Positions 13,419 to 56,314 of a DNA stretch of 64,000 nt are shown here, in pieces (the stretch's first letter is position 1; the number at the start of each line of letters is the position of its first letter). Under the pieces are notes generated by a model that was given only the letters and a program-made list of their open reading frames with translations, did no database searches and was not told the origin of the DNA. Made by a program: the position numbers and the translations under genes. The stretch is taken from NCBI GenBank assembly GCA_903912525.1, contig CAIWHK010000007.1, positions 22,563-86,562 on the forward strand, in the 5' to 3' direction. Source of the DNA: an uncultured bacterium (GTDB taxonomy: Bacteria > Krumholzibacteriota > Krumholzibacteriia > LZORAL124-64-63).

Positions 13419-14528
13419 TCAGGCGCCGGCATCCCACTGCGCGACGACGCGATCGAGCAGCGCGCCGGCATTCGTCTCCCCCATGCCGCCGTCGCCGAGC
13501 GGGTCGTCCTGCGCATCGCGCCCGGCCAGCGCCCGCGCCAGGTTGGCCACGCCCACGGCCAGCACCTCGGTGTCGTAGCCACCCTCGAGCATCACCGCGA
13601 TGCGGCCGCCGCAAAGCTCGTCGGCCGCCTGCACCAGCTGCCGACAAGCCCACGCATAGCCCGCCAGCGAGTACTGCAATTGCGCCAGCGGATCGCGCCA
13701 GTGCGCATCCCAACCCCCTGAAACCAGCAACAGGTCGGGCCTGAACCGGCGCAACTGCGGCAGCACGATGCGCGCGAAGGCCGCCTTGAGCGCCGCATCG
13801 CCGGCGCCGGGCGGCAGCGGGATGTTCACGTTCGCGCCGACGCCGGCGCCCTCGCCCGTCGCGTCGAACCAGCCGGTGCCCGGCCACAGCGGGTACTGGT
13901 GCAGCGAGATGAACAGCACCGACGGGTCGGCGATGAAGATGTCCTGCGTGCCGTTGCCGTGGTGCACGTCGAAGTCGACGATCGCGATGCGCGGAGTTGC
14001 GCCGGCGCAAGTGCCGGTGCCCACGCCCGCCGCCTGCGCCGCCCGCGCGGCGATGGCGATGTTGTTGAAGACGCAGAAGCCCATCGTGCGCGACGGCGTC
14101 GCGTGGTGCCCGGGCGGCCGCACCAGCGCCAGGCCGCGGTCGCACGTGCCGCGCATGATCGCGGTCGCGAGGTCCGCCGCGGCGCCGGCCGCGCACAACG
14201 ACGCCCGCCACGTGTGCTCGTTCGCATAGGTGTCCTCGTCGAGCATGACCGGCGTGTCGGCGACCAGCCGCGCGACCGTGTCGATGTGTGCGGCCTCGTG
14301 CGCGAGCAGCAGTTCGTCGCGCGTCGCCTCGCGCACGGACAGCGGCGTGAACTCGGCCAGCAGCGATGTGCGTTCGAGCTCGCGCCGGACCTCGACCAGG
14401 CGCTCGGGGCGCTCGGGGTGGCCGGGCTTGGCGTGGTCGAGGAACAGGGGGGAAGCCGCTAGGGCAAGGCGGGCGGTCACGGGAACCTCGCTTCCATGGT
14501 CGCTTCGGGTGAGGGTCCGAGCACGCAT
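13419..14528 (-). CDS. Histone deacetylase-family (HDAC/AcuC/AphA-like) deacetylase carrying an in-frame REP-derived insertion
   Basis: PPGHHA, DFDVHHGNGTQ and GGYD motifs. Start placed at the Met downstream of the REP copy at 14614-14633. An 8-residue insert VGTGTCAG is encoded by a REP copy at 13986-14005. Confidence 0.75.
   Translation of the reverse strand: MRARTLTRSDHGSEVPVTARLALAASPLFLDHAKPGHPERPERLVEVRRELERTSLLAEFTPLSVREATRDELLLAHEAAHIDTVARLVADTPVMLDEDTYANEHTWRASLCAAGAAADLATAIMRGTCDRGLALVRPPGHHATPSRTMGFCVFNNIAIAARAAQAAGVGTGTCAGATPRIAIVDFDVHHGNGTQDIFIADPSVLFISLHQYPLWPGTGWFDATGEGAGVGANVNIPLPPGAGDAALKAAFARIVLPQLRRFRPDLLLVSGGWDAHWRDPLAQLQYSLAGYAWACRQLVQAADELCGGRIAVMLEGGYDTEVLAVGVANLARALAGRDAQDDPLGDGGMGETNAGALLDRVVAQWDAGA
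13986..14005. repeat. REP-like palindrome copy (variant GAGTTGCGCCGGCGCAAGTG), in-frame inside the HDAC gene
   Basis: Matches the 20-bp family consensus GACTTGCGCCGGCGCAAGTC with 3 substitutions; encodes GTCAGA inside the ORF. Confidence 0.7.
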
Positions 14529-14613
14529 GGTTGCGAGGATCCAGGGCGGTGTCAATCCCCTGGGCAAAACGACAGGGACCCGAGCCACGGCCCGGGTCCC
14601 CATTTCCGATCCC

Positions 14614-14633
14614 GACTTGCGCCGGCGCAACTC
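14614..14633. repeat. REP-like palindrome GACTTGCGCCGGCGCAACTC
   Basis: Between the stop of the 14652 gene and the HDAC start. Confidence 0.8.
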
Positions 14634-14651
14634 CGCGAAGGGCCTGACCGC

Positions 14652-15545
14652 TTAGCCCTCCGCCTCCTGGGCCCCGGGCGCCGCCTCGGCAGCCGGGTTC
14701 AGGCGTGCGTGCACGGCCTGCACGGTGGCCCAGGCGCAGCGGGTCAGCGTCGGGCGGCCGATGAGTGCGCGGCGGATCTCGTCGAGGATGGCCGGGCCGA
14801 GGTCGGCCGCGGTGCGGAAGGCGCCACCGACAAAGAACGGGCGACGGCCGTTGCCGTCGGGCCAGTGCACGCCGATGGTGCCACCGTAGACGTTGTGCGA
14901 GCCGGACAGGTGCTTCAGCTGCATCGAGAACATGCGGTCGGGCTCGACCAGGACGTGCGCGATGCCGGTCAGGGCCAGCGCCAGTGCATCGACATGCAGG
15001 ACATGGCCGCCGGTCTGGTCGACACTGACGTAGACGACGGGCAGGCGACAGCCCGCCTCGCCGGTGACGCAGCGCACGGCGAGCTCCATGTCCAGGTCGG
15101 ACAGGCGCACGGGCGTCGAGCGCACGGCCAGGGCGCCGTCCATCGCGCCGCCAAGCTCTTCGATCAGGGTATGGACGATGACCGGCTTCTTGACGGCCGG
15201 CACCGGCACGCCGGGGCCGCGCGCGTCGGCCGAGACGCGCACCGAAATCCAGGCATCGTCAGCCTGCCGCGAGTAGACCAGCGTGGTGGCCCACTTGAGC
15301 AGGCCTTCCTGGCGCGCGAAGCCGACGGCGACCGATTCGTCCTCTGGCAGGTTGACGCGAAGCACGCGCACCAGTTCATCGCCTTCGCCGGCAGTGAACA
15401 TATTCGCGGTTTCGAAGTCGGCCAGCGACTCGGCGGTCAGCGCAGTCTCGGGCGTCGAGAGAATCCACTCCCGGACGACACGTAGGAATTCAGACGGATC
15501 GGCGCCATGGTCGATCGGGAATTCCGTAGCGAACAGCAGCATCAT
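14652..15545 (-). CDS. Hypothetical protein (298 aa), no recognisable domain
   Basis: Long ORF with genome-typical codon usage. ATGATG start with a GGAAG RBS; the track's AT-rich 5' extension is rejected. Confidence 0.5.
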   Translation of the reverse strand: MMLLFATEFPIDHGADPSEFLRVVREWILSTPETALTAESLADFETANMFTAGEGDELVRVLRVNLPEDESVAVGFARQEGLLKWATTLVYSRQADDAWISVRVSADARGPGVPVPAVKKPVIVHTLIEELGGAMDGALAVRSTPVRLSDLDMELAVRCVTGEAGCRLPVVYVSVDQTGGHVLHVDALALALTGIAHVLVEPDRMFSMQLKHLSGSHNVYGGTIGVHWPDGNGRRPFFVGGAFRTAADLGPAILDEIRRALIGRPTLTRCAWATVQAVHARLNPAAEAAPGAQEAEG

Positions 15546-16094
15546 TGTACTTCCTGCGTCATTTGGGCGATGACTACTGGAGCAATTATAATATAAACGT
15601 AAATGAAAAAGAAAGCACGCTGTTCCGTCTGGCGGAACCTGCAACGGTAAGTTGTTAAATTTGCGCAAGTTGTCGGGTCAAAAAATATGACACAGGGTCT
15701 GCTGGAGGCGGCAGGGCGAGCGGAGGAATCTCATTTTAAGTCAAATGCCGCAAATCCGCGAAAACGGGTGATTTAGTGACAATCGGGGGCTTGCCAGGAT
15801 CTTCGCCAGACAAAAGCTCTTTGCCCCCATGAACTTCACTCCAATGTACCGGCACGACCCCAAGGGCGGTCGGCCTCGTCGAGGTGTCGGCACCTGCCTG
15901 CAGGAGATGGAAATGGACTCGCTCCCCCTGTAGCGGGATAATGCCTGAAATGAATGCGGGGATGCCGGGGCGGGTGGCGCATGGGATGCCGCGCCCGGGG
16001 GCCGACCGTCGGAATCCGGTGCCGCCAGACCAACCCTCCCGCACGCCGCCGCCACCAACGGCGCCGGCAACCAGCTCGCCGATCAGGACAAGCC

Positions 16095-17585
16095 ATGACC
16101 CACCCCACCATCTCCAAGTCCAAGTTCCTCTCCGGCATCCAGTGCCCGCTCCTGCTCTGGACGCAGTACAACGACCGCGGCATCATCCCGCCCACCAACG
16201 CCGGCACGCAGTACATCTTCGACATGGGGCACAGCGTCGGCGACCTGGCCAAGCAGCTGTGGCCCAATGGCGTCGAGGTGCCGGCCGGCGGCGCCGACCG
16301 GCCCGATCTTGACGCGACCGTTGCGACGACGCGCGAGTACCTGAAGAAGCGCAAGCCGATCTTCGAGGCCAGCTTCGTGAGTGACGAGCCCGGTGGCCGC
16401 CGCTATGTGCGCGCCGACGTCATGCTGCCGGTGCTGGGCGAAGACCGCTGGGACCTGGTCGAGGTGAAGTCGTCGACGCGCACGAAAGATGTGAACATCT
16501 GGGACGTCGCGTTCCAGGCGGGGGCGATCGAGGGCGCGGGCGTGAAGCTGCGCCGATTGTCCCTGATGCACATCAACACGAGTTATGTGCGCCACGGGCC
16601 GATCGAGCCCGCGCGCCTGTTCGCGACCGACGACATCACCGATCTGGCGCGCAACCGCATGCGCGACGTGCCGCGCATGTTCGCGGAGTATGCGGCGACG
16701 ATCGACGGGCCGAAGCCCGTGGTGCCCATCGGCGCGCACTGCGTCAGCCCCTACACCTGCGCCATGAAGGACGTCTGCTGGAACCACCTGCCCGAGCACC
16801 ACGTCACGACGATGGTGCGCGCCGGCAAGAAGGCGTTCGACTGGGTCGAGCGCGGCATCCACGACGTGGCCGACATTCCCAACCGCGACCTGGCGGGCTC
16901 GCAACGCGTGCAGAAGGATGCCGTCAAGAGCGGTCGGGCGGTCATCGACCAGAAGGCCATCCACGCCCTGCTCGACAGCCTGGAGTACCCGCTCTGGCAC
17001 CTCGACTTCGAGTCGGTCAACCCGGCGGTGCCGCTGTTCAACGGCACGCGCCCGTTCCAGCAAGTGCCCTTCCAGTTCTCGCTGCACGTCGAGGAGGCGC
17101 CCGGCGCCGAACCGGAGCACATCGAGTTCCTGTCCGTCGACAGCAACGACCCGCGGCCCGCGCTGCTCGAGGCGCTGAGTCAGATCGGCCCCTACGGCAC
17201 CGTGCTGGCGTTCAACGCGACGTTCGAGTCGCAGGTGCTCGCCACGCTCGGCATGACGTTCCCCGAGTGGAAGCCGATGACCGACGACCTGGGCGCGCGC
17301 CTGCGCGACCTGGCCGACCCGTTCCGGACGTTCTCCGTCTACCACCCCGGGCAGAAGGGCAGCTACTCGTTGAAGTCGGTGTTGCCGGCGCTGACCGGGG
17401 CCGGGTACGAGGGGCTGGCGATCGCGGACGGGCAGGCGGCCGGGCGGCAGTGGCTGCAGGCAGTCTACAAACCGGGACTGCCGGAGAGCGATCGCGAGGG
17501 GATCTTCGAGGGATTGCGGGCGTACTGCGGCAAGGACACCGGGGCGATGGTCGAGATCCTCGAGGTGCTGCGCGGGATGATCTAG
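16095..17585 (+). CDS. DUF2779-like protein (predicted RecB/Cas4-like nuclease N-terminus with RNase H-like C-terminal region)
   Basis: N-terminus MTHPTISKSKFLSGIQCPLLLW resembles the conserved DUF2779 N-terminal signature. The track's 47-codon Arg-rich extension is rejected. Confidence 0.5.
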   Translation: MTHPTISKSKFLSGIQCPLLLWTQYNDRGIIPPTNAGTQYIFDMGHSVGDLAKQLWPNGVEVPAGGADRPDLDATVATTREYLKKRKPIFEASFVSDEPGGRRYVRADVMLPVLGEDRWDLVEVKSSTRTKDVNIWDVAFQAGAIEGAGVKLRRLSLMHINTSYVRHGPIEPARLFATDDITDLARNRMRDVPRMFAEYAATIDGPKPVVPIGAHCVSPYTCAMKDVCWNHLPEHHVTTMVRAGKKAFDWVERGIHDVADIPNRDLAGSQRVQKDAVKSGRAVIDQKAIHALLDSLEYPLWHLDFESVNPAVPLFNGTRPFQQVPFQFSLHVEEAPGAEPEHIEFLSVDSNDPRPALLEALSQIGPYGTVLAFNATFESQVLATLGMTFPEWKPMTDDLGARLRDLADPFRTFSVYHPGQKGSYSLKSVLPALTGAGYEGLAIADGQAAGRQWLQAVYKPGLPESDREGIFEGLRAYCGKDTGAMVEILEVLRGMI

Positions 17586-17596
17586 CGGGGCGCCGG

Positions 17597-17616
17597 CAGT
17601 TGCGCCGGCGCAAGTG
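17597..17616. repeat. REP-like palindrome CAGTTGCGCCGGCGCAAGTG
   Basis: 12 bp after the DUF2779 stop. Confidence 0.8.
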
Positions 17617-17714
17617 CAGCCTCATCAGTGGCAGGCCGGTTGACCGTCGATGCCGGTGCGTGCCAGAATGCCGTCGCCATTGCTTGCCACGTCTGCCTGC
17701 CGTGAGGGGCGCCC

Positions 17715-18815: not shown

Positions 18816-18865
18816 GGCGCCGCCGGCCTGGTCATCTCACCAGGAGTCATTTCACCAGGACCCGG

Positions 18866-19645: not shown

Positions 19646-19736
19646 TTCAGCCTCTTTCGCCAAATATCGGGGGCGTTTGGGGCGGGCCACCAAGGACGTC
19701 GTCCTCGGCCGACCCGCCCCACCGACTGCGAACAGT

Positions 19737-28244: not shown

Positions 28245-28264
28245 GACTTGCGCCGGCGCAAGTC
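28245..28264. repeat. REP-like palindrome GACTTGCGCCGGCGCAAGTC (perfect; extended to 28 bp by GGGG/CCCC flanks)
   Basis: Between the cohesin-like and VOC genes. Confidence 0.85.
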
Positions 28265-29181: not shown

Positions 29182-29201
29182 GGACTTGCGCCGGCGCAAG
29201 T
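29182..29201. repeat. REP-like palindrome GACTTGCGCCGGCGCAAGTC (perfect)
   Basis: 30 bp after the VOC stop; first of a tandem pair. Confidence 0.85.
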
Positions 29202-29251
29202 CCCCTTTGCCGTTCTCAGGCGGAGAGAAGGATGCCTGGCCGCTACACCCC

Positions 29252-29271
29252 GGACTTGCACCGGCGCAAGT
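29252..29271. repeat. REP-like palindrome GACTTGCACCGGCGCAAGTC (1 mismatch)
   Basis: Second of the pair, 50 bp downstream. Confidence 0.8.
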
Positions 29272-29377
29272 CCGCCGCGCGGCGAATCGCAGTTTGCTCC
29301 CGGGGCACAAAATCGGTGTATTGTATTTTTCGTTTTTTATCTGTTACAATATATCAGCAAAGGAGCGTACACTGCAT

Positions 29378-30204: not shown

Positions 30205-31081
30205 CCCGGCCCATTTCCGGAGCGCCGTTAACTATACGGCGGCAGTCACGGCGTTCCCTGTGGCACCCATCGAGAAGGACTTCTTCTGCACCCTTCTTCT
30301 GGAGCACCTGGCACGCAACGAACCTGACCTCGTCTTCAAGGGCGGAACCGCCCTGGCGAAAGTCCACGCTGGATTCTACCGATTGAGCGAGGACCTGGAC
30401 TTCACCCTTCCGATGCCGCTTGATTCCCCACGCTCGGCCCGCAGGCGGCGCATGGCCGGCATCCGTCGCGCGCTGGAAGGCATCGGCCGCGAATTGGCCG
30501 TCTTCCATTTGGCTGAGCCCCTGCGTGGCGCCAACAACTCGTCCCAATACTCGGCCACGGTCCGGTACCAGTCGCCATGCCTCGGATCGAGCGAAGACAT
30601 CAGACTCGACATATCCCTGAGGGAGCCACTGCTGACTCCCATCTATGCCGGGGCTGCGCAGACCATACTCCGCAACCCTGTCAATGGCAGCCGCATCATT
30701 CGCGATGTGCGCATCCCGTGCCTGTCGTGGCAGGAGTCGTGGGCCGAAAAGTTCCGCGCAGCGCTTTCGCGCCGGGATGTGGCCATTCGCGATTTCTACG
30801 ACATCGATGTTGCCGTCAGGCGGTGGAACCTGGACTCAGGCGCCGACGGGTTCGTCGCACTCGTACACCGGAAGCTATCGACTCCCGGATTCGAAAGACT
30901 GGAGCTTTCGTCGACGCGCCTGCGGTGCCTGAGAGCCCAGATCGACACGGAACTGCGACCCGTGCTCAGGCCCGTTGACTTCGAACCCTTCGACATGGAC
31001 AGGGCCGTCGACATCGTTGACGAGATGGCGAGGCGGATCCGCAAGATCGGACGCCAACGCCCAACCACCGGCACGGGATGA
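30164..31081 (+). CDS. AbiEii-family nucleotidyltransferase toxin (DUF1814), type IV TA
   Basis: EKDFFCTLLLEHLA...LVFKGGTALAKV...RLSEDLDF, the hallmark of AbiEii/DUF1814. The stop codon lies inside the REP copy at 31080-31099. Confidence 0.75.
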   Translation: MDRLASGAIRILDDPAHFRSAVNYTAAVTAFPVAPIEKDFFCTLLLEHLARNEPDLVFKGGTALAKVHAGFYRLSEDLDFTLPMPLDSPRSARRRRMAGIRRALEGIGRELAVFHLAEPLRGANNSSQYSATVRYQSPCLGSSEDIRLDISLREPLLTPIYAGAAQTILRNPVNGSRIIRDVRIPCLSWQESWAEKFRAALSRRDVAIRDFYDIDVAVRRWNLDSGADGFVALVHRKLSTPGFERLELSSTRLRCLRAQIDTELRPVLRPVDFEPFDMDRAVDIVDEMARRIRKIGRQRPTTGTG

Positions 31082-31099
31082 GTTGCGCCGGCGCAAGTC
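31080..31099. repeat. REP-like palindrome GAGTTGCGCCGGCGCAAGTC
   Basis: Overlaps the AbiEii stop codon; sits between convergent genes. Confidence 0.8.
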
Positions 31100-32802: not shown

Positions 32803-33623
32803 CGGCGACTCCCCTCGACAACGGCAGTCCGCACATCCTCGCACGCGAACCGCAGGAAGTCGTGCACATGGGCCAGCAGCGGATGATCCGGACCGCCCAC
32901 CGGCACCAGCGTCCGGTTGACCTCGACCATCAGCGAGCGCGTGTCGTTGACGTGCGGCGGCAGGTCGCCGGGCACGAAGGAACCCGCGAACGGCCGGTTG
33001 TGGTCGATGAGGCCCGGCGCGCCCGCGGCGCGACCCGTCCACCACGCCAGCCAGTTGCGCGGCGCGTGGACCTCGTCGTAGCCGAGGCAATACCATGGCC
33101 GCGAGCCGCCGTCCGTCTCGTAGGGCAGCGGCGCCTGGGGAAACGAGTGCAGGTCGATGATGTGGACCGGCGCGTCGAAGCGCTCGCGCAGTTCGACGAC
33201 CAGGTCGCGCATGGCGCGGTGGTACGGGTGGTAGAACTCGTCCATGCGCTCGGCGCGGTCGTCGGCGTCCCAGTTGCGCCGGCGCAAGCGGCGGCCGTCG
33301 TGCGCGTGCACATAGATGGCGCCCATGCCCCAGACGGCGGCGATCTCGTCGGCGTCGGCGGCGTATCGCTCGGGGTCCATCACGACACGGCAGACGTTGT
33401 TGACCACGACGTGGGCGCCGAGCGCCACCAGGGGCAGCGCCAGGCGGTCGGTGTCGTGGTCGACGAGGGCCTCGATCACTTCGCGGAGCTCTGCGTCGGT
33501 CAGCACGAAGTCGCCACGGCAGTGCAGGGGCACGAAGCGCGAGGCGTGGGGCACGTGGATGATGATCGGCAGCGCCACTGCCGGGTCGGGACGATGGATG
33601 GTAAGCCAGGCGTTGTCGCCCAT
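32799..33623 (-). CDS. N-formylglutamate amidohydrolase (FGase, PF05013-like) fold protein with in-frame REP-derived insertion
   Basis: IIIHVPHAS motif typical of the FGase family. A REP copy at 33271-33290 encodes the RRLRRRNW insert. Confidence 0.6.
   Translation of the reverse strand: MGDNAWLTIHRPDPAVALPIIIHVPHASRFVPLHCRGDFVLTDAELREVIEALVDHDTDRLALPLVALGAHVVVNNVCRVVMDPERYAADADEIAAVWGMGAIYVHAHDGRRLRRRNWDADDRAERMDEFYHPYHRAMRDLVVELRERFDAPVHIIDLHSFPQAPLPYETDGGSRPWYCLGYDEVHAPRNWLAWWTGRAAGAPGLIDHNRPFAGSFVPGDLPPHVNDTRSLMVEVNRTLVPVGGPDHPLLAHVHDFLRFACEDVRTAVVEGSRR
33271..33290. repeat. REP-like palindrome variant CAGTTGCGCCGGCGCAAGCG, in-frame inside the FGase-fold gene
   Basis: Encodes RRLRRRNW on the minus strand. 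Confidence 0.65.
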
Positions 33624-38614: not shown

Positions 38615-38634
38615 GAGTTGCGCCGGCGCAAGTC
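38615..38634. repeat. REP-like palindrome GAGTTGCGCCGGCGCAAGTC
   Basis: Intergenic, next to the 38646 remnant ORF. Confidence 0.8.
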
Positions 38635-39302: not shown

Positions 39303-39322
39303 GACTTGCGCCGGCGCAAGTC
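39303..39322. repeat. REP-like palindrome GACTTGCGCCGGCGCAAGTC (perfect)
   Basis: Upstream of the SWIM-SNF2 helicase gene. Confidence 0.85.
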
Positions 39323-42909: not shown

Positions 42910-42929
42910 GACTTGCGCCGGCGCAAGTC
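42910..42929. repeat. REP-like palindrome GACTTGCGCCGGCGCAAGTC (perfect)
   Basis: Between the convergent helicase stop (42879) and MqsA-like stop (42942). Confidence 0.85.
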
Positions 42930-44911: not shown

Positions 44912-44931
44912 GACTTGCGCCGGCGCAAGTC
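44912..44931. repeat. REP-like palindrome GACTTGCGCCGGCGCAAGTC (perfect)
   Basis: 3 bp after the YhcG paralog 3 stop. Confidence 0.85.
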
Positions 44932-48545: not shown

Positions 48546-48565
48546 CAGTTGCGCCGGCGCAAGTC
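48546..48565. repeat. REP-like palindrome CAGTTGCGCCGGCGCAAGTC
   Basis: Between the M6 protease start region and the YhcG1 stop. Confidence 0.8.
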
Positions 48566-49969: not shown

Positions 49970-49989
49970 AACTTGCGCCGGCGCAAGTC
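49970..49989. repeat. REP-like palindrome AACTTGCGCCGGCGCAAGTC
   Basis: Cassette array; followed 45 bp later by the AT-palindrome 50027-50060. Confidence 0.8.
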
Positions 49990-50026: not shown

Positions 50027-50060
50027 TTGGAATTCTGCCAACAGTGTTGGCAGAATTGGG
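50027..50060. repeat. AT-palindrome family copy TTGGAATTCTGCCAACAGTGTTGGCAGAATTGGG (intergenic remnant, 45 bp downstream of REP 49970)
   Basis: Perfect 11+1+11 core with family-conserved flanks TTGGAATT...AATTGGGCAA. Minus-strand translation RFFAVLPNSANTVGRIPS resembles a YhcG N-domain segment. Confidence 0.75.
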
Positions 50061-50200: not shown

Positions 50201-50220
50201 GAGTTGCGCCGGCGCAAGTC
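50201..50220. repeat. REP-like palindrome GAGTTGCGCCGGCGCAAGTC
   Basis: Cassette array; upstream of the HTH-ImmA gene. Confidence 0.8.
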
Positions 50221-50256
50221 CTGACGCTACGACCGCCCCGCATGGGCGTGTATTCT

Positions 50257-50277: not shown

Positions 50278-50351
50278 TTTCTTGGCGGCGATATCCGATC
50301 TGCATATACTCATTGAAGGCCGTACCTGCCTGGACTTCATCGGGGACTACC

Positions 50352-51434: not shown

Positions 51435-51440
51435 CCTGGC

Positions 51441-51460
51441 CACTTGCGCCGGCGCAAGTC
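51441..51460. repeat. REP-like palindrome CACTTGCGCCGGCGCAAGTC
   Basis: 7 bp after the ImmA stop; followed by the AT-palindrome 51497-51530. Confidence 0.8.
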
Positions 51461-51496
51461 CGGCCGGATCGCGCCTAAGCGATTGATTTCCCGCTC

Positions 51497-51530
51497 TTTG
51501 GAATTTTATCATCACTGATGAGAATATTGG
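51497..51530. repeat. AT-palindrome family copy TTGGAATTTTATCATCACTGATGAGAATATTGGG
   Basis: Imperfect arms (2 mismatches); 37 bp downstream of REP 51441. Confidence 0.7.
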
Positions 51531-51546
51531 GCAACGCCGGCAGGCC

Positions 51547-52182
51547 CTACCGATAGCAGTCATGGAACCACTCGGGTCCAAGCCGGATGAACGTGTTCAC
51601 GGCAGCCGCGAGTCTCGCACCGGGCGCCGCACTGGCCGCCAGGACCCTCTTGCCATGCGCCCGCACAGCATCGACGGCTGGCGTGAAGTCGCCATCGGCC
51701 GACAGCAGGTACGCGGTATCGAATTCGTCGCGCTCGGCCATCACGACCATGTCGACGGCCAGAAAGACATCAACGGCTTTTTCGACATAGGCCGTGGCAC
51801 GCATGTTCCGCCGCGCGATGTCATACAGGTCCCGGTAAACCTGCTGGTCGATGCGCGTGGACAATGTCGTGAGATAGTCCTTGAGTTCCCTGGCCGCGTT
51901 GTCAGTCACCGGGCGTGACTCGAGGCGCCCGAAGTGCACGCTGATCTTCGGCGACGATGCCCTGAGAGCGGCAATGAACCTGCGCTGGGCCGCATAGAGT
52001 GCCAGACTGCTTCGTTGCTCGACCTGGCCTACGTAGTACCTGGTGGCGCACCACTGCCGCGGCCCGACGAGCTTGCGCGAAATCACCCCATAGTCGAGCC
52101 GACCCAAGTCGGCGATGCCATGCTGCTTGGCGCCGTGATACCAGTTGTTGCCATCGATGAAGAGCACTGCGCGTTCAGCCAC
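51547..52182 (-). CDS. NYN-domain (LabA-like) predicted RNase
   Basis: VLFIDGNNWYH and VDVFLAVDMVVMAERDEFDTAYLLSADGDF motifs. Probable GTG start. A deleted version of this cassette is present at 55110-55320. Confidence 0.6.
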   Translation of the reverse strand: MAERAVLFIDGNNWYHGAKQHGIADLGRLDYGVISRKLVGPRQWCATRYYVGQVEQRSSLALYAAQRRFIAALRASSPKISVHFGRLESRPVTDNAARELKDYLTTLSTRIDQQVYRDLYDIARRNMRATAYVEKAVDVFLAVDMVVMAERDEFDTAYLLSADGDFTPAVDAVRAHGKRVLAASAAPGARLAAAVNTFIRLGPEWFHDCYR

Positions 52183-52194
52183 GGCGCCGACCCA

Positions 52195-52236
52195 AAAGAA
52201 AAACCCCGGCGTGTGGCTGAGCCAGACCCCGGGGGG
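52195..52236 (-). terminator. Terminator-like hairpin plus T-run (minus strand) immediately upstream of the NYN gene; same element as 55215-55260
   Basis: CCCCGG-cgtgtggctgagccagac-CCGGGG stem followed on the minus strand by TTTTTCTTTT. Confidence 0.35.
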
Positions 52237-52675
52237 ATAAAACACCCGGTCCCGTGGGATCCGAGCGACCCGCAGTATACACAGGGCTGGGCTGCCGTGT
52301 CAACTGCAGTGGCGAAGCGCTAAAGAAGAGCCCTCCGGGGCGCCACCAGAAGGGGGTCAACCGGCTCAGCAAGCCGGGCTGGGGTTGATACGCATTCAGT
52401 TGCGATCTGATCGCGGGGCGGGTCAAGGGCGATTCCCTCTTTGGCGCTGGAGTGGGCCGGCGCGGTCGAGAATGCAAGGACCCCGCCCGGCGGCGTCCTT
52501 GTCGCTGCGCCAGTGCACAAGTAGTCGCGCAACTGCCGCGTCGTTTGCGCGTCATGACGGCCAAGTTCCGAAAGCCCCCGGGCGAGGTGCCATGCACCTT
52601 GCGAGCCCACCGCAAATACATGTCATGCTCCGTTGACAGCTTCATGGGAGATGGCGCCCGCCGTCTTCACTTGCC

Positions 52676-52695
52676 GACTTGCGCCGGCGCAAGTT
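52676..52695. repeat. REP-like palindrome GACTTGCGCCGGCGCAAGTT
   Basis: 14 bp downstream of the YhcG2 stop. Confidence 0.8.
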
Positions 52696-52708
52696 CCCTA
52701 CCCCCACG

Positions 52709-53824
52709 TCAGCGCAACCGCCCCAGAAACGCCCTCTGCGTCCGAATGATCTCCTGCCGCAGCGACTCCGTGTCCGGCAGCACCGTCAGGTAGCGCGAGG
52801 CGAAGACGTTCGCGGCGATGCCGCCCATCGCGTAGTGGACGACGGCGTCGTTCTTCGCGCTGCAGAGAATCAAGCCCACCGGCTCGTGCTCGTCGGGGCC
52901 CATGAGGTGCTCGCGCGCGTAGTTGAGGTAGAGGTTCATCTGGCCGGCGTCGGCGTGCGTGAACTTGCCGAGCTTGAGGTCGACCACGACCAGGCAGCGC
53001 AGCGCGCGGTGGTAGAGCAAGAGGTCGATGCGGTACCACTCGTCGCCGATGCGGATGCGCTTCTGCCTCGCCACGAACGTGAAGCCGGCGCCCAGTTCGA
53101 GCAGGAACGATTCGAGGTGGCGGACGATGGCGTCCTCGAGATCGGACTCGCTGTACTCATCCTTCAGGTCGAGGAACTCGAGGAGGTACGGGTCGCGGAT
53201 GTGGTGCTGCAGTTCGGCGGGGTCGACAGGCGCGGGCTTGCGCGCGGCGGCGAGCATGCGGTCGGGGTTGGCGGACGCGGTGACGCGCTCGAAGAACTGC
53301 GTGCTGATCTGGCGGTCGAGCTGGCGGACGGACCAGCCGGAGCGGATAGCTTCGGATTCGTAGAGGGTGCGGGCGGCGTGGTTTTCGACGGACATCAGAC
53401 GGACGTAATGTGACCACGAAAGGGGGAAGGAAATGGGCGTAACTGACGACTCATCAAGTGTTTGTAATTTTCTCGACACTGTCGAGAATATCTGCAATTC
53501 CAGATAAAAACATCTCATTTTGTAAAGTCCCGGCCTGGAGAATCCCCTGCCGTATCGGCTGGACAGATCGCGCCCCAGACGCGTGAGCAACTCTTCGCCA
53601 TACTCGGCGCGGACACGCCCACCCTGTTCATATTCGACGATTCGGCGTCCGATTTCCCAGTACGCCGACACGACGACGCTTTGCGTCGATCGCACGACAG
53701 AGCGCCGGGCCTCTTCCAGTAGGCCGGAGATTCCCGTCACCAGTTCTCCGTAGGGCTCCGCGCCGGATGCACCGGACGTCGGTGCGGGGACCCTCGCGTC
53801 CCGAGGCTTTCGATTCCTGGCCAT
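52709..53824 (-). CDS. YhcG-family (DUF1016) nuclease, paralog 2 (intact)
   Basis: About 88% protein identity to paralog 1 across the body; contains the internal palindrome 53467-53492. Confidence 0.7.
   Translation of the reverse strand: MARNRKPRDARVPAPTSGASGAEPYGELVTGISGLLEEARRSVVRSTQSVVVSAYWEIGRRIVEYEQGGRVRAEYGEELLTRLGRDLSSRYGRGFSRPGLYKMRCFYLELQIFSTVSRKLQTLDESSVTPISFPLSWSHYVRLMSVENHAARTLYESEAIRSGWSVRQLDRQISTQFFERVTASANPDRMLAAARKPAPVDPAELQHHIRDPYLLEFLDLKDEYSESDLEDAIVRHLESFLLELGAGFTFVARQKRIRIGDEWYRIDLLLYHRALRCLVVVDLKLGKFTHADAGQMNLYLNYAREHLMGPDEHEPVGLILCSAKNDAVVHYAMGGIAANVFASRYLTVLPDTESLRQEIIRTQRAFLGRLR
53467..53492. repeat. AT-rich palindrome AATTTTCTCGACA-C-TGTCGAGAATAT inside the YhcG paralog 2 CDS (sense encodes QIFSTVSRKLQ)
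   Basis: 1 arm mismatch; same codon position as in paralogs 1 and 3 but a different half-site sequence. Confidence 0.8.
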
Positions 53825-54087
53825 GCTTCCCATTCCCATCTGCCGGATGTACCGACGCGGTCCAGATGCCAACGAGAGTTCACGGAAGAGGCGCGATGTG
53901 TCGCGGGTGATGGGCGCCTGCGGTGCGACGTCGGGGATGAATCATTGCCGACGACAAACCACATTCGCGGCGCCAATCGAGCCTTTCCTAGGGAGATGCC
54001 GGCGCTGGGCGGCGGCGCCGATTAGGCGGCCACGCACACACAGCGATGGCCATTGAGGCAGGCGGCAGGCCAGATGGTGAACGTGGC

Positions 54088-54107
54088 GACGTGCGCCGGC
54101 GCAAGTC
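54088..54107. repeat. REP-like palindrome GACGTGCGCCGGCGCAAGTC
   Basis: Cassette array; followed by the AT-palindrome 54145-54177. Confidence 0.8.
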
Positions 54108-54144
54108 AGCCCGATTTCGGCGCAAACAGTTGTCGCGGCGTGAC

Positions 54145-54177
54145 TTGGAATTTTACCATCACTGATGGTAAAATTGG
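54145..54177. repeat. AT-palindrome family copy TTGGAATTTTACCATCACTGATGGTAAAATTGG (intergenic remnant)
   Basis: Core identical to the YhcG1 internal palindrome. Flanking 30 bp on both sides align to the YhcG1 3' end and to the YhcG1 sequence next to its palindrome, so this looks like an internally deleted yhcG copy. Confidence 0.75.
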
Positions 54178-54400
54178 CCAAAACAGAAAACAATCTCACA
54201 TCAAGCAACATCGGCACGCACTGCTGCGCGCTACCGCGAGGCCGTGAACACACATCCAATCGGTGCCGCCCTGGCGAAGAACGCGCCCCTGTGCCCACTC
54301 CTGGCGGCGCTCCCAGCCGCCCACCTCAGAACGCCGGACCAAGCAGACCGGCCGATCCGGGCACAACTGCTGCCTACAAATGGTCGCGAACCGCCGCACC

Positions 54401-54420
54401 GACTTGCGCCGGCGCAAGTC
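54401..54420. repeat. REP-like palindrome GACTTGCGCCGGCGCAAGTC (perfect)
   Basis: Cassette array; followed by the AT-palindrome 54457-54490. Confidence 0.85.
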
Positions 54421-54456
54421 GACGGCCTTCGACATAACTGGTTCCAAAACAATCAA

Positions 54457-54490
54457 TTGGAATTTTCCCGACAGTGTCGGGAAAATCTGA
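54457..54490. repeat. AT-palindrome family copy TTGGAATTTTCCCGACAGTGTCGGGAAAATCTGA, about 45 bp upstream of the AbiEi-like gene 54534
   Basis: Perfect 11+1+11 core. Confidence 0.75.
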
Positions 54491-54533
54491 CGGCAGGCAC
54501 AGCCCTGCACATAACTAAATCTTGGGTTAAGTT

Positions 54534-55127
54534 TTGTGCATGGACACCAAGACACAAAGCCACCGCGCCGGCCCCAGCTGGGACCAGCTCTACGAAACCG
54601 CTGCCGCCCAGGCCGGCCACTTCACGACGGCCCAGGCCGAGGCCGCGGGGTACTCGCCCCAGCTGCTGGCCAAGTACCTGGCCAACGGGCGTGTGGTCAG
54701 GGTGCGTCGCGGCGTGTACCGCCTCACCCATTTTCCGGCGGGCGAACTCGAGGAGTTCGCCGTCGTGTGGCTGTGGAGCGAGCGGGCCGGGGTCTTTTCG
54801 CATGAGACGGCGCTGTTTCTGCATGGGCTGTCCGATGCGCTGCCGTCACGAGTCCACCTGACGCTGCCCGCGGATTGGCGTCGGCGAAGGCTGCGCGTAC
54901 CGGATGGCGTCGCGACGCACTTCGGCGAGGTGGCCGGTGCGGATCGCGGCTGGGTGGGCCCGGTGCCTGTGACCGCTGTTGCGCGGACGCTCGTCGATTG
55001 TGCGGAGGCCGGGGTTGCGCCGGAGATGGTGCGCGATGCCATGGAGCAGGCGATCGAGCGTGGGATGATTCGCAAGGGATCAGTGCCGCGACTTGCGCCG
55101 GCGCAAGTCCGGCCGGATCGCGCCTAA
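54534..55127 (+). CDS. AbiEi-like (COG5340) antitoxin/regulator, orphan; C-terminus encoded by a REP copy
   Basis: WDQLYETAAAQAGHFTTAQAEAAGYSPQLLAKYLANGRVVRVRRGVYRL winged-helix N-domain typical of AbiEi. The last residues LAPAQVRPDRA are translated from REP 55090-55109. Confidence 0.5.
   Translation: MCMDTKTQSHRAGPSWDQLYETAAAQAGHFTTAQAEAAGYSPQLLAKYLANGRVVRVRRGVYRLTHFPAGELEEFAVVWLWSERAGVFSHETALFLHGLSDALPSRVHLTLPADWRRRRLRVPDGVATHFGEVAGADRGWVGPVPVTAVARTLVDCAEAGVAPEMVRDAMEQAIERGMIRKGSVPRLAPAQVRPDRA
55090..55109. repeat. REP-like palindrome GACTTGCGCCGGCGCAAGTC (perfect)
   Basis: Forms the 3' end of the AbiEi-like ORF 54534-55127; followed by the AT-palindrome 55147-55180. Confidence 0.85.
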
Positions 55128-55145
55128 GCGATTGATTTTCCGCGC

Positions 55146-55320
55146 CTTGGAATTTTATCATCACTGATGAGAATATTGGGCAAAGCCGATCAGGTCCTGG
55201 CGATATCAGCAATGGAACCACTCGAGGCCAAAAGAAAAACCCCGGCGTGTGGCCAAGCCAGACCCCGGGGGGATTAAGGTGCCCGGTCCCGTGGAATCCG
55301 AGCGGCTGTAAGTATAGCCG
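55146..55320. other. Deletion derivative of the 51441-52300 cassette: REP, AT-palindrome, about 25 bp of NYN 3' end, then the terminator hairpin; the NYN ORF is precisely missing
   Basis: 55090-55205 aligns to 51441-51565 and 55206-55320 aligns to 52190-52300, with about 640 bp absent in between. Confidence 0.6.
55147..55180. repeat. AT-palindrome family copy TTGGAATTTTATCATCACTGATGAGAATATTGGG (duplicate of 51497-51530)
   Basis: Part of the duplicated cassette 55090-55320. Confidence 0.7.
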
Positions 55321-55357
55321 ATGCCCAAATGCCGCAGCAACTCCCACCGCCGACTGA

Positions 55358-56152
55358 TCACACATCGCCTTCCTCCACGCCCCCCACCAGTCCCACCGGC
55401 ACGATCAACCGCCACCTGCGGACGAGTCGGCCTCCGCGCGCGCGGTCGAGGTGCACCGGCTGGGCCGGCAGCAGCGACTGCAGGCTGGCCAGGGTCGCGT
55501 CGGGCACGGCCAGTTCGCGCTGGCGGGTGTCGAGCAAGAAGCCGACCCTCGACGCGAGCGTGCGGTTGGCGAGGACGCGGACGTACGCGAGCAGCGCGTC
55601 CGGGTCGATGGCCGGGATCGCCATCAGCGAGCGCCACACCTCGTCGAGGCCGCCGGCAATCGATGGCCGGTCGAGAACGTCGGCCACCGTGCGCTCGAGG
55701 CTGGTCACGCGCACTTCGAGTCCATTGCGGTCCAGGACGTCGATCCACGCCTGCTGCGGGTGGCGCGCGCGCAACTCGCACCGCGGCTGCACCGGCGACA
55801 GGCGGCGGCCCCGGAACGTGGCGGCACGGGCTCGCGTCCAGGTGATGAACGTGAAATTGTCGGACAGGCTCTGCGCACAACCGTGCGCCTCGAGCGCCGT
55901 GTGGTAGGCGGCGGCCGCGTCCGGCGCCATGCGGGCGGCCAGCGCGATGTAATCGGGGGTTGGCTCCCAGGGCTCCGTTGACCCCGGCGGACGACCGACA
56001 TACAGGCCGCTCTTCACGCGCAGCAACCGGCCCTGGCGTACCCAGCGGGCGAGGTGGGCATCGACGGTGGCAGGAGCGCGACCGGGGAGCGCGGCGATCA
56101 GCTCGTCGCGGGTGAAGAGCGGGGTCGTGGCCAGGAAGTGGTCCGGCTTCAT
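55358..56152 (-). CDS. AbiEi-like (COG5340) antitoxin/regulator, orphan
   Basis: MKPDHFLATTPLFTRDELIAALPGRAPATVDAHLARWVRQGRLLRVKSGLYV N-domain typical of the family; GGGAGG RBS. Confidence 0.5.
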   Translation of the reverse strand: MKPDHFLATTPLFTRDELIAALPGRAPATVDAHLARWVRQGRLLRVKSGLYVGRPPGSTEPWEPTPDYIALAARMAPDAAAAYHTALEAHGCAQSLSDNFTFITWTRARAATFRGRRLSPVQPRCELRARHPQQAWIDVLDRNGLEVRVTSLERTVADVLDRPSIAGGLDEVWRSLMAIPAIDPDALLAYVRVLANRTLASRVGFLLDTRQRELAVPDATLASLQSLLPAQPVHLDRARGGRLVRRWRLIVPVGLVGGVEEGDV

Positions 56153-56162
56153 GTTAGTGCCT

Positions 56163-56194
56163 CCCAATATTTGCAATTTATTACAAATTATGGG
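56163..56194. promoter_or_regulatory. Imperfect 32-bp palindrome CCCAATATTTGCAATTTATTACAAATTATGGG overlapping RBS/5' UTR of the AbiEi-like gene 55358-56152; candidate autoregulatory operator
   Basis: Inverted repeat immediately upstream of the start codon. AbiEi proteins are known to autoregulate through inverted repeats. Confidence 0.35.
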
Positions 56195-56294
56195 CGTCTA
56201 CAACAACGGTGTCGCATGGCCGACCAGCCGCCGGTCCCGGTTGCAGGGCGCCGCCACGAAACACAACGGGCCCCAGTAGGAGCCCAGGGCCTGC

Positions 56295-56314
56295 GACTTG
56301 CGCCGGCGCAAGTC
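56295..56314. repeat. REP-like palindrome GACTTGCGCCGGCGCAAGTC (perfect); last copy in the window
   Basis: Followed by the AT-palindrome 56351-56384. No copies are found in the lower-GC island beyond 56.7 kb. Confidence 0.85.

Follow-up and report, generated by a model that had tools for sequence, protein, structure and literature searches.

What kind of element is a 20-bp palindrome that recurs at the gene ends of an uncultured bacterium, and what keeps its copies alike, is the question raised by this locus, a stretch of 64,000 nucleotides (the window) from a genome placed in the Krumholzibacteriia. Within the window, 21 matches to GACTTGCGCCGGCGCAAGTC at ≤3 mismatches are found, the number given by the first-pass annotation, against an expectation of 0.00 in 100 dinucleotide-preserving shuffles. 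The recount gives 8 exact copies, 9 with one mismatch, 2 with two and 2 with three in place of the earlier split of 9, 7 and 5, and the core TTGCGCCGGCGCAA is intact in 19 of the 21 (exceptions at 29253 and 54088), where 18 had been reported. The span of 13986-56314 previously assigned to all copies leaves out the one at 8824-8843, and a 22nd copy, with exact core only and four outer mismatches, lies within a gene at 33271-33290. The close pair described earlier exists and is located at 29183 and 29253, not at 29182 and 29252. As had been noted, no copy occurs in the window past 56.7 kb, where G+C drops from about 0.66 to about 0.57, and copies are translated as LAPAQV or TCAGAS; DLRRRK also occurs. 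All copies are listed in Table 1.

Table 1. Palindrome copies and second inverted repeats (IR2) in the window; L numbers denote related loci
Feature	Coordinates	Strand	Mismatches	Context
Palindrome	8824..8843	.	3	CAGTTGCGCCGGCGCAACTC; position 3/18 swap compensatory; last 20 codons of CYTH-domain gene, read VAPAQL
Palindrome	13994..14013	.	2	mid-gene in histone-deacetylase-family gene, read TCAGAT
Palindrome	14614..14633	.	1	between tandem genes, 18 bp past stop of minus-strand gene 14652-15677
Palindrome	17597..17616	.	3	position 1/20 swap compensatory; 11 bp past DUF2779 gene stop
Palindrome	28245..28264	.	exact	32 bp past a stop; stem lengthened by flanking GGGG/CCCC
Palindrome	29183..29202	.	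exact	30 bp past glyoxalase-family gene stop; first of pair 70 bp apart
Palindrome	29253..29272	.	1 (core, TTGCACC)	second of 70-bp pair
Palindrome	31080..31099	.	1	first two bases finish AbiEii TGA stop; convergent gene's stop 14 bp away
Palindrome, 22nd	33271..33290	.	4 (outer; core exact)	CAGTTGCGCCGGCGCAAGCG; in N-formylglutamate-amidohydrolase-family gene
Palindrome	38615..38634	.	1 (GAG)	identical variant at homologous place in L082
Palindrome	39303..39322	.	exact	upstream of SNF2/SWIM helicase gene; conserved in L082
Palindrome	42910..42929	.	exact	convergent genes either side, stops 30 bp and 12 bp away
Palindrome	44912..44931	.	exact	convergent gap, 2 bp past stop of YhcG/DUF1016 gene 1
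Palindrome	48546..48565	.	2	26 bp past YhcG gene 2 stop; edge of L066 homology block
Palindrome	49970..49989	.	1	first part of composite unit
IR2	50027..50057	+		TTGGAATTCTGCCAACAGTGTTGGCAGAATT; also promoter/operator-like; 37 nt past palindrome 49970
Palindrome	50201..50220	.	1	upstream of HTH-IrrE gene
Palindrome	51441..51460	.	1	convergent gap, 6 bp past HTH-IrrE stop; composite unit
IR2	51498..51527	+		37 nt past palindrome 51441
Palindrome	52676..52695	.	1	13 bp past YhcG gene 3 stop
Palindrome	54088..54107	.	1 (core, GTGCGCC)	composite unit
IR2	54145..54175	+		37 nt past palindrome 54088
Palindrome	54401..54420	.	exact	upstream of AbiEi_4 gene; composite unit
IR2	54457..54487	+		36 nt past palindrome 54401
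Palindrome	55090..55109	.	exact	last 13 codons of AbiEi_4-like ORF, read LAPAQV; composite unit
IR2	55147..55176	+		37 nt past palindrome 55090
Palindrome	56295..56314	.	exact	composite unit; L066 conserves it, flanks 97% identical
IR2	56352..56382	+		37 nt past palindrome 56295

A discrete, nearly invariant unit

Across 199 copies, positions 4-17 are 99-100% conserved, the sole variation of the unit consists of G/C swaps at positions 1, 3, 18 and 20, and this variation is two-fold symmetric. The palindrome is thus a discrete 20-bp unit with an invariant core of 14-16 bp. The copies share no flank consensus, and their stems extend into the flanks no more often than in the shuffled control (0.74 vs 0.76). 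Lone half-sites are absent (0 observed against 0.4 expected for the 10-bp half), no copy with four mismatches exists besides 33271, and copies with five to seven mismatches stay at the null level. Conservation therefore appears to act on the sequence itself, beyond mere pairing, and the lack of both half-sites and decayed copies argues that a sequence-specific protein of two-fold symmetry must recognise the element. Being perfect, the palindrome has no polarity and, as first annotated, no GTAG-type tag. REPIN-like doublets form seven pairs with an exact 34-bp period. In the island, the palindrome and IR2 also combine into composite units of about 110 bp, all in one orientation, with the palindrome at one end.

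The predicted hairpin has an 8-bp stem and a CCGG loop (-11 kcal/mol, z = -3.4). A classical terminator role, suggested earlier, is not supported: the defining T-tract is missing, the frequency of T downstream of oriented copies being only 0.06-0.19, and a terminator scan calls none of the copies. Separate T-tailed hairpins occur in the same region, which makes the palindrome dispensable for termination. The proposed restriction-modification link through GCCGGC likewise fails, as this hexamer occurs 138 times outside the copies against about 163 expected (copies included), which is no marked avoidance.

Placement at gene ends

By self-trained, home-made codon-model gene calls, 18 of the 21 window copies (not 19, as annotated before) and 142 of 179 copies in related loci are intergenic. 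Coding sequence takes up 84% of random positions but only about 20% of copies, a four-fold depletion. Of the classified copies, 29% are in convergent gaps, which make up 10.7% of the intergenic length, and 8% are in divergent (promoter) gaps, which make up 30%. The palindrome favours the gaps at convergent and tandem gene ends and is under-represented in divergent ones. The REP-like, mainly extragenic spread with a bias to gene 3′ ends that the first-pass annotation described is borne out, as are copies between convergent genes or on a stop (31080 overlaps a TGA). The statement that almost all copies have a stop within 40 bp was too strong, since only 11 of the 18 intergenic copies are found ≤40 bp downstream of one, and five are flanked by divergently oriented genes (39303, 49970, 50201, 54088 and 54401). 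Distances from stop to copy are scattered over 0-50 bp and show no asymmetry. Native high-GC DNA has roughly 1-6 copies per 10 kb, and nearly each gene or operon in 27.5-56.7 kb has bounding copies.

Occurrence across the clade

The palindrome had been considered genome-specific, which is incorrect, as the exact 20-mer is multicopy in other species-representative genomes, among them at least six species-level MAGs (CAIOLW, CAINDZ, JAIFKS, JADJQR, JAYRFB and CAYNPY). It is a feature of an entire clade of uncultured FCB-group bacteria, labelled Eisenbacteria or Krumholzibacteriia. Copies recur at homologous positions with flanks 65-90% identical, as for the variant shared by 38615 and L082, in a set of related loci picked by exact 20-mer match, which inflates the apparent conservation of orthologous copies and over-represents HNH genes. 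Homology blocks shared with L066 and L054 switch neighbours with palindromes at the junctions: the copy at 51441 is the edge of a block 94% identical to L066, and one 96%-identical block stops inside an L066 palindrome, the window sequence there being unrelated. No clean pair of filled and empty sites was found among the compared loci. Taken together, the first-pass observation is partly confirmed and its interpretation partly supported.

An HNH nuclease family with built-in copies

The fetched loci contain eight HNH nuclease genes, each of which carries the palindrome within its coding sequence at the same codons, GE(K/R)RLAPAQVEALACD, and a second copy at the C-terminus. The peptide LAPAQ[VA] is present in 77 of 120 homologues, and the symmetric variants VAPAQL and FAPAQI show compensatory changes at positions 3/18. 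The internal site of 13 genes is written with the rare codons CTT and CAA without exception, while adjacent codons vary synonymously. The C-terminal copy is read as LAPAQV or TCAGAS in frames that differ between members, and therefore DNA is what is conserved there. HNH genes frequently have a further copy just upstream. Six loci (103 kb) were anchored on the HNH gene and not on the repeat; of their 15 core copies, 11 are within HNH genes and 2 immediately upstream.

The AlphaFold model of the HNH protein (pLDDT 83.8) has a helical N-terminal domain that is weakly ParB/Noc-like (Foldseek E 0.3-1). ParB/Noc DNA-binding domains bind palindromes of 14-16 bp; to our knowledge, ParB/Noc proteins are without a nuclease of this type. 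The family presumably resembles the DUF222-HNH ('13E12 repeat') proteins of Actinobacteria, which are multi-copy with a helical N-terminal domain; Pfam DUF222 gives no match in the family at E <= 0.1, and we know of no dispersed 20-bp repeat for 13E12. In the model, the internal LAPAQV belongs to the protein fold as the N-terminus of a helix, and a generic L-[STA]-P-x-x-L motif occupies this place in the wider superfamily, for which reasons the in-gene site could be an old peptide motif that was later homogenised to the palindrome. HNH genes are syntenic in different assemblies and appear to be resident paralogues, not hopping elements. The window holds no HNH gene despite its 21 copies, and some HNH-bearing genomes (L096, L099, L101 and L106) have no dispersed copies within 12-21 kb. 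The family is the best candidate partner of the palindrome, a plausible but tentative assignment.

Known systems and alternative explanations

REPs follow ORFs in the gaps between unidirectional or convergent genes, with some in genes, and form dimers (Di Nocera et al. 2013, PMC3733652). The palindrome resembles the REP/BIME elements of Enterobacteria and Pseudomonas in being short (20-40 bp), high-copy, extragenic, mostly 3′ of ORFs and sometimes dimeric, with presumed RNA hairpins at 3′ ends. Unlike GTAG-tagged REPs it is perfect, without unpaired tag or bulge and hence without polarity; unlike RAYT-linked REPs it is accompanied by no RAYT in the sampled DNA; and it differs from REP/BIME in being identical across several species with a nearly invariant core. 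Untagged REP-like stem-loop families are known from M. tuberculosis, Deinococcus radiodurans (SRE), Bordetella, Brucella and cyanobacteria (Di Nocera et al. 2013, PMC3733652). With these the palindrome shares small dispersed units that lack a conserved terminal tag and a known transposase, and it differs in sequence, in its uncultured FCB lineage and in having a visible candidate partner family, the HNH nucleases.

It is unlikely that the palindrome is a classical REP moved by a RAYT (Y1/HUH transposase) encoded elsewhere in the genome and that it merely colonised the HNH genes, although its gene-end distribution, in-gene copies and dimers fit the surveyed REPs (PMC3733652), the doublets keep a fixed 34-bp period and the sample comprises about 64 kb of genome plus fragments of relatives. 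An unpaired tag, GTAG or CGTC, is missing, and the perfect palindrome bears no strand mark; E. coli RayT as phmmer query reached no E better than 0.79 when every six-frame ORF of the window and of about 0.8 Mb of related loci was searched, and Pfam searches returned no Y1_Tnp match among about 45 window proteins, in keeping with the earlier remark that the window has no RAYT or other transposase. Moreover, the HNH in-gene copies sit at fixed, rare codons in all lineages, including genomes poor in dispersed copies, contrary to what random colonisation predicts. Conservation of sequence rather than structure, two-fold symmetric variation, the lack of half-sites, several copies 50-140 bp upstream of start codons and the weak ParB/Noc likeness of the HNH N-terminal domain would also suit a static array bound by a dimer with a chromosome-organising or regulatory function, with no mobility or RNA role; this dimer could resemble ParB/Noc, or CRP/FNR in view of the core TTGCG-N4-CGCAA. 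Such an array is nevertheless improbable, as about one copy per 2-7 kb is well beyond any regulon known to us, promoter gaps are depleted while convergent gaps with nothing to regulate are enriched, and many copies overlap stops or sit 0-30 bp past them.

A recombination site bounding exchangeable defence-island cassettes, integron-like or dif-module-like and spread by cassette traffic, would explain why copies bound the genes and operons of 27.5-56.7 kb, where candidate defence and toxin-antitoxin cassettes are found, and why L066/L054 blocks change neighbours or end at palindromes. The likeness to integron attC sites and Acinetobacter pdif modules lies in repeated sites between single-gene cassettes, often of toxin-antitoxin or defence genes, and in the co-oriented composite units of the island. 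The palindrome, however, is 20 bp long against 57-141 bp, lacks the R''/L''/L'/R' arrangement of attC and any integrase or Xer context (Pfam searches found no integrase, recombinase or transposase in the window, and about 0.8 Mb of related DNA likewise has no transposase or integrase), and is also common after ordinary core genes and present within coding sequence; synteny breaks are expected at operon boundaries, where copies sit regardless, and the composite unit is limited to one island type, with 3 short matches in a metagenome scan. This reading is very improbable, and still less credible is a DNA uptake signal enriched by biased uptake in natural transformation. Neisseria DUS and Haemophilus USS are identical clade-wide, form inverted pairs at gene ends and are missing from foreign islands, and the palindrome is likewise conserved across the species of its clade with sharp bounds and no decay tail, common at gene ends and missing from the recently acquired low-GC island. 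Known signals are 9-12 bp, non-palindromic and mostly single, whereas here the unit is the full 20 bp, the 10-bp half is never alone and the coding-sequence share is far smaller; competence genes were not seen in the window. Ordinary intrinsic terminators or an assembly artefact can be practically dismissed: G+C-rich hairpins do lie past stop codons, but the T-tract is missing, one and the same sequence at about 200 sites across several genomes cannot stem from convergence, and the copies have individual substitutions, unique flanks and homologous places in independent assemblies made by different sequencing and assembly methods.

A probable untagged REP-like element and its candidate partner

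The palindrome is probably a REP-like element without a tag, which folds into hairpins at the 3′ ends of transcripts and owes its constancy to a sequence-specific protein. Transcription from either side would produce the same G+C-rich 8-bp stem with CCGG loop, and this bidirectional hairpin most likely blocks 3′ exonucleases and attenuates read-through, like the REPs of E. coli, whose hairpins stabilise mRNA; a putative role as 3′-end stabiliser is a reasonable reading of the predicted fold and its energy. A sequence-specific protein of two-fold symmetry would keep the palindrome uniform or spread it, and the HNH endonuclease is a candidate for this protein through its conserved in-frame sites at rare codons, its terminal copy and its frequent upstream copy. 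The new lead is this HNH family with a built-in palindrome, a candidate partnership that would be analogous to that of RAYT genes with their flanking REPs.

Copy number and anatomy of the palindrome

The repeat is real, with small corrections to its first description. At up to three mismatches, the 20-bp palindrome GACTTGCGCCGGCGCAAGTC has 21 matches in the window against 0 expected from 100 dinucleotide-preserving shuffles. Eight copies are exact, nine carry one mismatch, two carry two and two carry three, a recount that replaces the 9/7/5 split (exact, one, two to three) of the first-pass annotation, and the conserved 14-nt core TTGCGCCGGCGCAA is intact in 19 of the 21 rather than in 18. A 22nd copy at 33271-33290 retains the exact core with four outer mismatches. 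The range first given for the repeat, 13986-56314, holds for every copy except the one at 8824, and the reported absence of copies beyond 56.7 kb is borne out; G+C content there is about 0.57, compared with about 0.66 before it. Copy density is 1.45 per 10 kb over 1-27.5 kb and 5.8 per 10 kb over 27.5-56.7 kb, and two copies form a close pair (29183 and 29253). An assembly artefact produced by mis-joins, a possibility raised with the first description, is ruled out by the differences among copies, their unique flanks and their recurrence in independent assemblies.

Alignment of 199 copies from the window and related loci shows 99-100% conservation at positions 4-17, with variation at positions 1, 3, 18 and 20 that consists almost only of G/C swaps. 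These copies have no flank consensus, and extension of the stem into the flanks shows no excess (0.74 pairs versus 0.76 with the right flanks shuffled), so that a longer element is ruled out in general by flank profiles and stem-extension statistics alike, with nothing beyond 20 bp. The sole exception is the island at 48.5-56.7 kb, where the palindrome lies within a composite unit of about 110 bp. Solitary 10-bp half-sites number 0 against 0.4 expected, no four-mismatch copy exists besides that at 33271, and copies with five to seven mismatches are as numerous as under the Markov null. The 20-mer is therefore a discrete unit that shows no tail of decayed copies. A comparison with Rfam returned nothing at the gathering threshold and nothing of meaning up to E <= 1, tRNA genes are absent, and a literature search for the core sequence returned no paper.

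Most copies are singlets, and 18 of 109 neighbouring pairs lie less than 100 bp apart. Seven doublets share an exact period of 34 bp, made up of the 20-bp unit and a 14-bp spacer that usually ends in GTGA or GCGA, and one related locus (L024) has four copies in a row at this period. Because the unit is self-complementary, two adjacent copies could pair together as a 20-bp stem, and because the palindrome is perfect, the orientation of a doublet is undefined. By analogy, these doublets resemble REPIN-type dimers. A REPIN is an inverted doublet of REPs that forms the replicative unit.

Coordinates and matches of features in the window and in related loci (L-numbers) taken from other assemblies
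Feature	Location	Position	Remarks
Palindrome in CDS	window	8824	within last 20 codons of CYTH gene
Palindrome in CDS	window	13994	middle of deacetylase gene
Palindrome in CDS	window	55090	within last 13 codons of AbiEi-like ORF
T-tailed hairpins, canonical terminator pattern	window	38446-38471, 44954-44967, 55241-55257	near palindromes; minus strand (55241-55257)
Palindrome doublets or array, 34-bp period	L024	5395-5516
Palindrome doublets or array, 34-bp period	L003	697-750
Palindrome doublets or array, 34-bp period	L042	1125-1178
Palindrome doublets or array, 34-bp period	L045	155-208, 1258-1311
Three YhcG/DUF1016 nucleases	island		match PDC-S02
NYN protein	island		matches HEC-09
HTH-IrrE protein	island		PD-Lambda-2_B / RmrA-like
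AbiEi and AbiEii	island
SNF2-SWIM helicase	island		DpdE/ZorD-like
Defence-type island	window	39400-56700
Lower-GC segment	window	57285-60570	M48 peptidase and GmrSD_N protein (PDC-M55C / HEC-05); no palindromes
Paralogous modules	window	48546-51460, 52676-55109
Remnant of NYN gene region	window	55110-55306	internally deleted; matches L066 4293-4153 and 3542-3465
IR2 copies	window	49345-49375, 50027-50057, 51498-51527, 53462-53491, 54145-54175, 54457-54487, 55147-55176, 56352-56382
IR2 copies (six)	L066		minus strand
Three large secreted-type proteins	window	18866-27176	C-terminal FlgD_ig / Por_Secre_tail domains
Exact 20-mer in HD-domain gene	L047	4460-4479	Flavobacteriaceae UBA7446, G+C 0.365; read GLAPAQV
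Exact copy in ClpB-like AAA+ gene with PCRF domain	L038; L069; L083	2763; 2773; 609	read DLRRRKS
Tandem duplication	L106 (JADJQR010000001.1)	10001-20385	block of HNH, two FGE-sulfatase and FlgD_ig protein genes

Placement relative to genes

Genes were called greedily with a codon log-odds model trained on long high-GC3 ORFs, which gives reliable stop and approximate start positions. On these calls the copies are mostly intergenic, as first stated, at 18 of 21 rather than 19. The gene-end bias also stands, to a lesser extent than the "almost all" originally claimed, with 11 of the 18 intergenic copies no more than 40 bp after a stop; the copy at 31080 provides the GA of a TGA stop, and five copies lie between divergently oriented genes. 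Among 179 copies from related loci, 79% are intergenic compared with 16% of random positions (21% versus 84% in CDS), convergent gaps hold 29% of classified copies in 10.7% of intergenic length, and divergent gaps hold 8% in 30%. Enrichment at gene 3′ ends, which the first-pass annotation had singled out for checking, is thus found in the window and in the related loci, and the bias is real.

Folded as RNA, the 20-mer forms an 8-bp stem with a CCGG loop (-11 kcal/mol, z = -3.4). Intrinsic terminators combine such a G+C-rich hairpin with a U-tract, whereas no T-tract follows the palindrome: in 70 copies oriented by their upstream gene the downstream T fraction is 0.06-0.19, and no copy was called in a terminator scan. 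The palindrome is thus no canonical intrinsic terminator, and the plain terminator role first proposed is not supported. In the same 70 copies the variable positions have no asymmetry, and stop-to-copy distances are evenly distributed between 0 and 50 bp, irrespective of codon phase. Hairpins with T-tails occur near some palindromes (Table), one of them on the 3′ side of the stop of an FG-GAP gene (45013), 23 bp from the palindrome at 44912-44931.

Distribution across genomes

When species-representative genomes were scanned, the exact 20-mer matched at least 94 stretches. Multi-copy genomes among the matches listed include LJ_bin-5039 (CAIOLW), LaPlata-b_bin-2430 (CAINDZ), bin_118 (JAIFKS), the closed 4.7-Mb MAG JADJQR, a Krumholzibacteriia MAG (JAYRFB) and MAGs labelled Eisenbacteria, Fibrobacteraceae and Omnitrophota (G+C 0.68-0.73), and the palindrome is accordingly not genome-specific, contrary to what had been supposed. 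The phylum labels are unreliable, since two of these MAGs, DASSLZ and DATJEJ, carry different ones and have in common a 6.5-kb stretch that is 93% identical. Pieces of three related loci (L066, L054, L082) are 80-96% identical to the window, whose source is therefore related to these MAGs. At homologous positions the 20-mer is unchanged, with flanks that are 65-90% identical; fetching the loci by exact match biases most of these pairs, and an unbiased case is a GAG variant at 38615 that recurs in L082. No clean pair of filled and empty orthologous sites was found among the window and the fetched loci.

Single matches in Paraburkholderia, Adlercreutzia, Blastocatellia and a Flavobacteriaceae MAG (36% GC) were considered as members of the family and treated as chance matches; the Flavobacteriaceae match lies inside a listed ORF and that in Paraburkholderia reads GLAPAQV in a frame translated by eye, while the other two were judged from the nucleotides. 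By base composition, so G+C-rich a 20-mer is very unlikely in the AT-rich Flavobacteriaceae genome, and it could derive from a chimeric contig or a converted patch. The ClpB-like genes that contain an exact copy come from three different MAGs and are 76-83% identical. The FlgD_ig / Por_Secre_tail proteins form the largest paralogue family in all fetched loci (28 members) and are a useful lineage marker; the type IX secretion tails of the window proteins fit an organism of the FCB group.

Defence-type island and a second inverted repeat

The accessory island at 27.5-57 kb is made up of short units, with matches to candidate families of defence and toxin-antitoxin genes (Table). Nearly every unit has a bounding copy of the palindrome, and much of the higher copy density follows from there being more gene ends per kb. 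Blocks homologous to L066 and L054 have different neighbours, with palindromes at the junctions, and one 96%-identical block stops inside the last 4 nt of an L066 palindrome, where the window sequence is unrelated. Recombination at the repeats would fit this pattern, but operon ends are where breaks in synteny are to be expected in any case. Among the roughly 45 window proteins, Pfam detected no integrase, recombinase or transposase domain, and the fetched loci likewise yielded no RAYT, transposase or integrase. YhcG/DUF1016 was rejected as a partner of the repeat: a palindrome follows each of the three window genes, but most loci, and the single matches in other phyla, are without YhcG.

Two modules of the island are paralogous, each consisting of a palindrome, a YhcG gene, a conserved non-coding stretch of about 345 bp, a second palindrome and the inverted repeat IR2. 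IR2 (consensus TTG[GTA]AATTYY...CA[GC]TG...RDAWWH, e.g. TTGGAATTCTGCCAACAGTGTTGGCAGAATT) is a 27-bp inverted repeat whose arms show compensatory variation, with both sides changed in 5 of 12 pairs and a covariation score of 0.251 compared with 0.097 in shuffles. It starts exactly 36-37 nt after the palindrome in 11 of 14 copies, the remaining three lying antisense within YhcG genes, and all copies are co-oriented irrespective of gene orientation. Its outer parts resemble -35 and -10 boxes spaced 18 nt apart, and it is confined to this island type and three short metagenome contigs. IR2 could be either a promoter/operator or a structured cassette junction.

Relation to known classes of repeat

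In the broad sense the palindrome has the properties of a REP, which are short (20-40 bp), mostly extragenic and high in copy number (here 21-22 copies in 64 kb) and lie preferentially downstream of ORFs, between unidirectional or convergent genes. The REP-like reading of the first-pass annotation is broadly upheld by this placement, and so are its remarks that the usual 5′ tetranucleotide is absent and that no RAYT lies in the window, where Pfam and phmmer with E. coli RayT gave no match. REPs tagged with GTAG/CGTC have an unpaired tag at one end of the stem-loop, whereas this unit is a perfect GAC...GTC palindrome between flanks without consensus. RAYT-associated REPs flank their cognate RAYT (Y1 transposase) gene; the best RayT hit over six-frame ORFs of the window and about 0.8 Mb of related loci had an E-value of 0.79, in a single-sequence search that is weakly sensitive.

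The palindrome does not fit the other classes compared. DNA uptake sequences (DUS/USS) are asymmetric, 9-12 bp long, single, found on both strands and often within CDS, whereas the palindrome half-site never stands alone. Integron attC sites are imperfect inverted repeats of 57-141 bp with R''/L''...L'/R' cores and with IntI and attI nearby, in contrast to a perfect 20-bp unit with no GTTRRRY / RYYYAAC arrangement and no integrase in the window. MITEs span 50-500 bp with terminal inverted repeats and target-site duplications, while the present 20 bp have neither conserved flanks nor direct repeats. The core fits the dyad form of CRP/FNR operators (TTG-N8-CAA), but these lie upstream of promoters, and the palindrome is rare in divergent and enriched in convergent gaps, with one copy per 2-7 kb. 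A restriction-modification link through under-representation of GCCGGC, also suggested at first, finds no support, as 138 sites outside the copies compare with about 163 expected (maximal-order Markov model, copies included), which is no notable depletion, and other G/C hexamer palindromes behave alike. The palindrome fits the loosely defined, untagged REP-like stem-loop families (Di Nocera et al., 2013; PMC3733652).

An HNH nuclease family as candidate partner

All-against-all comparison of the fetched loci revealed a recurrent family of proteins of 330-430 aa with a C-terminal HNH domain (PF01844) and no Pfam match in the first 250 or so residues. All members contain the palindrome in frame at the same place, as GE(K/R)RLAPAQVEALACD some 50 residues ahead of the HNH motif, and a second in-gene copy at the extreme C-terminus; some have a third, and extra copies often lie directly upstream of the gene, just past the stop of the preceding one (L068, L087, L100, L102, L107). 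The C-terminal copy is read in the LAPAQV frame in some members and in the TCAGAS frame in others and is therefore conserved as DNA. At the internal site the codons CTT and CAA are invariant across 13 genes, which come from more than 10 assemblies, with neighbouring codons varying synonymously, and these A/T-ending codons are rare in genomes with a GC3 of about 0.9. LAPAQ[VA] is present in 77 of 120 homologues (57-99% identity), and the symmetric DNA variants VAPAQL (G/C at positions 3/18) and FAPAQI (T/A) are much commoner than asymmetric mixes. In six loci fetched by protein (103 kb, unbiased for the repeat), HNH genes contain 11 of the 15 core copies and have two more directly upstream. In an AlphaFold model (pLDDT 83.8), a zinc-ribbon-like hairpin is followed by a helix whose N-terminus holds the internal LAPAQV, and the predicted helical domain at the start of the protein is weakly similar to Noc and ParB DNA-binding domains (TM 0.6-0.7 on target, E 0.3-1). 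Those domains bind palindromes of 14-16 bp.

Several observations count against the link. The window has no HNH gene, and no dispersed copies occur over 12-21 kb in four loci that carry the gene (L096, L099, L101, L106), while in L095 and L096 the in-gene sites are imperfect palindromes. HNH genes occupy syntenic places in different assemblies, adjoining FGE-sulfatase genes or a GH31 gene, and from this context look like resident paralogues. The wider superfamily, with 564 clusters at E < 1e-30, is huge, and at the internal site it shares no more than a generic L-[STA]-P-x-x-L motif; (L/V)APAQ(V/L) occurs in the close subfamily alone and distant ones show no repeated peptide of another kind, which leaves a co-variation test across subfamilies without leverage. 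The palindrome thus belongs intrinsically to this HNH subfamily, where it is under constraint as a nucleotide sequence, and its genome-wide proliferation is limited to some lineages.

In the tandem duplication of L106, the second block has an HNH pseudogene that is truncated at its N-terminus and follows a YhcG/DUF1016 gene; insertion of the latter at the internal palindrome is ruled out, as the junction lies elsewhere.

Biological meaning

The palindrome works like a REP, as an extragenic hairpin repeat at gene ends, and its most plausible role, judged from sequence and placement, is that of a bidirectional 3′-end structure in RNA. Its strict conservation, two-fold symmetry and lack of half-sites and decay argue for recognition by a dimeric sequence-specific protein, for which the HNH family is the only concrete candidate partner in these data. 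That the palindrome and the LAPAQV-type HNH nucleases form a new kind of nuclease-repeat partnership, analogous to that of RAYT and REP but with a ParB/Noc-like domain fused to HNH, is a tentative reading that we consider rather unlikely. Under such a partnership, the HNH protein would recognise the two-fold-symmetric 20-mer, present also inside and around its own gene, and nicking, repair or gene conversion by it would seed and homogenise copies at gene ends and, in defence islands, give junctions for cassette exchange.

REP-type repeats rank with the most abundant non-coding features that bacterial genomes have. To our knowledge, how they arise and are maintained is understood for the GTAG class alone, where RAYT transposases are responsible, and we know of no enzyme for the untagged REP-like classes. 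Here, an untagged, perfectly symmetric repeat, conserved base for base in several uncultured species, points to a testable candidate partner in the HNH nuclease. If the link fails, the palindrome is still a clean new family of 3′-end hairpin repeats, useful for annotating the ends of transcription units in these MAGs. If it is true, there would be a second route to REP-like repeats, by a different mechanism, as well as a sequence marker for an uncultured clade and a hint at how single-gene defence cassettes are shuffled.
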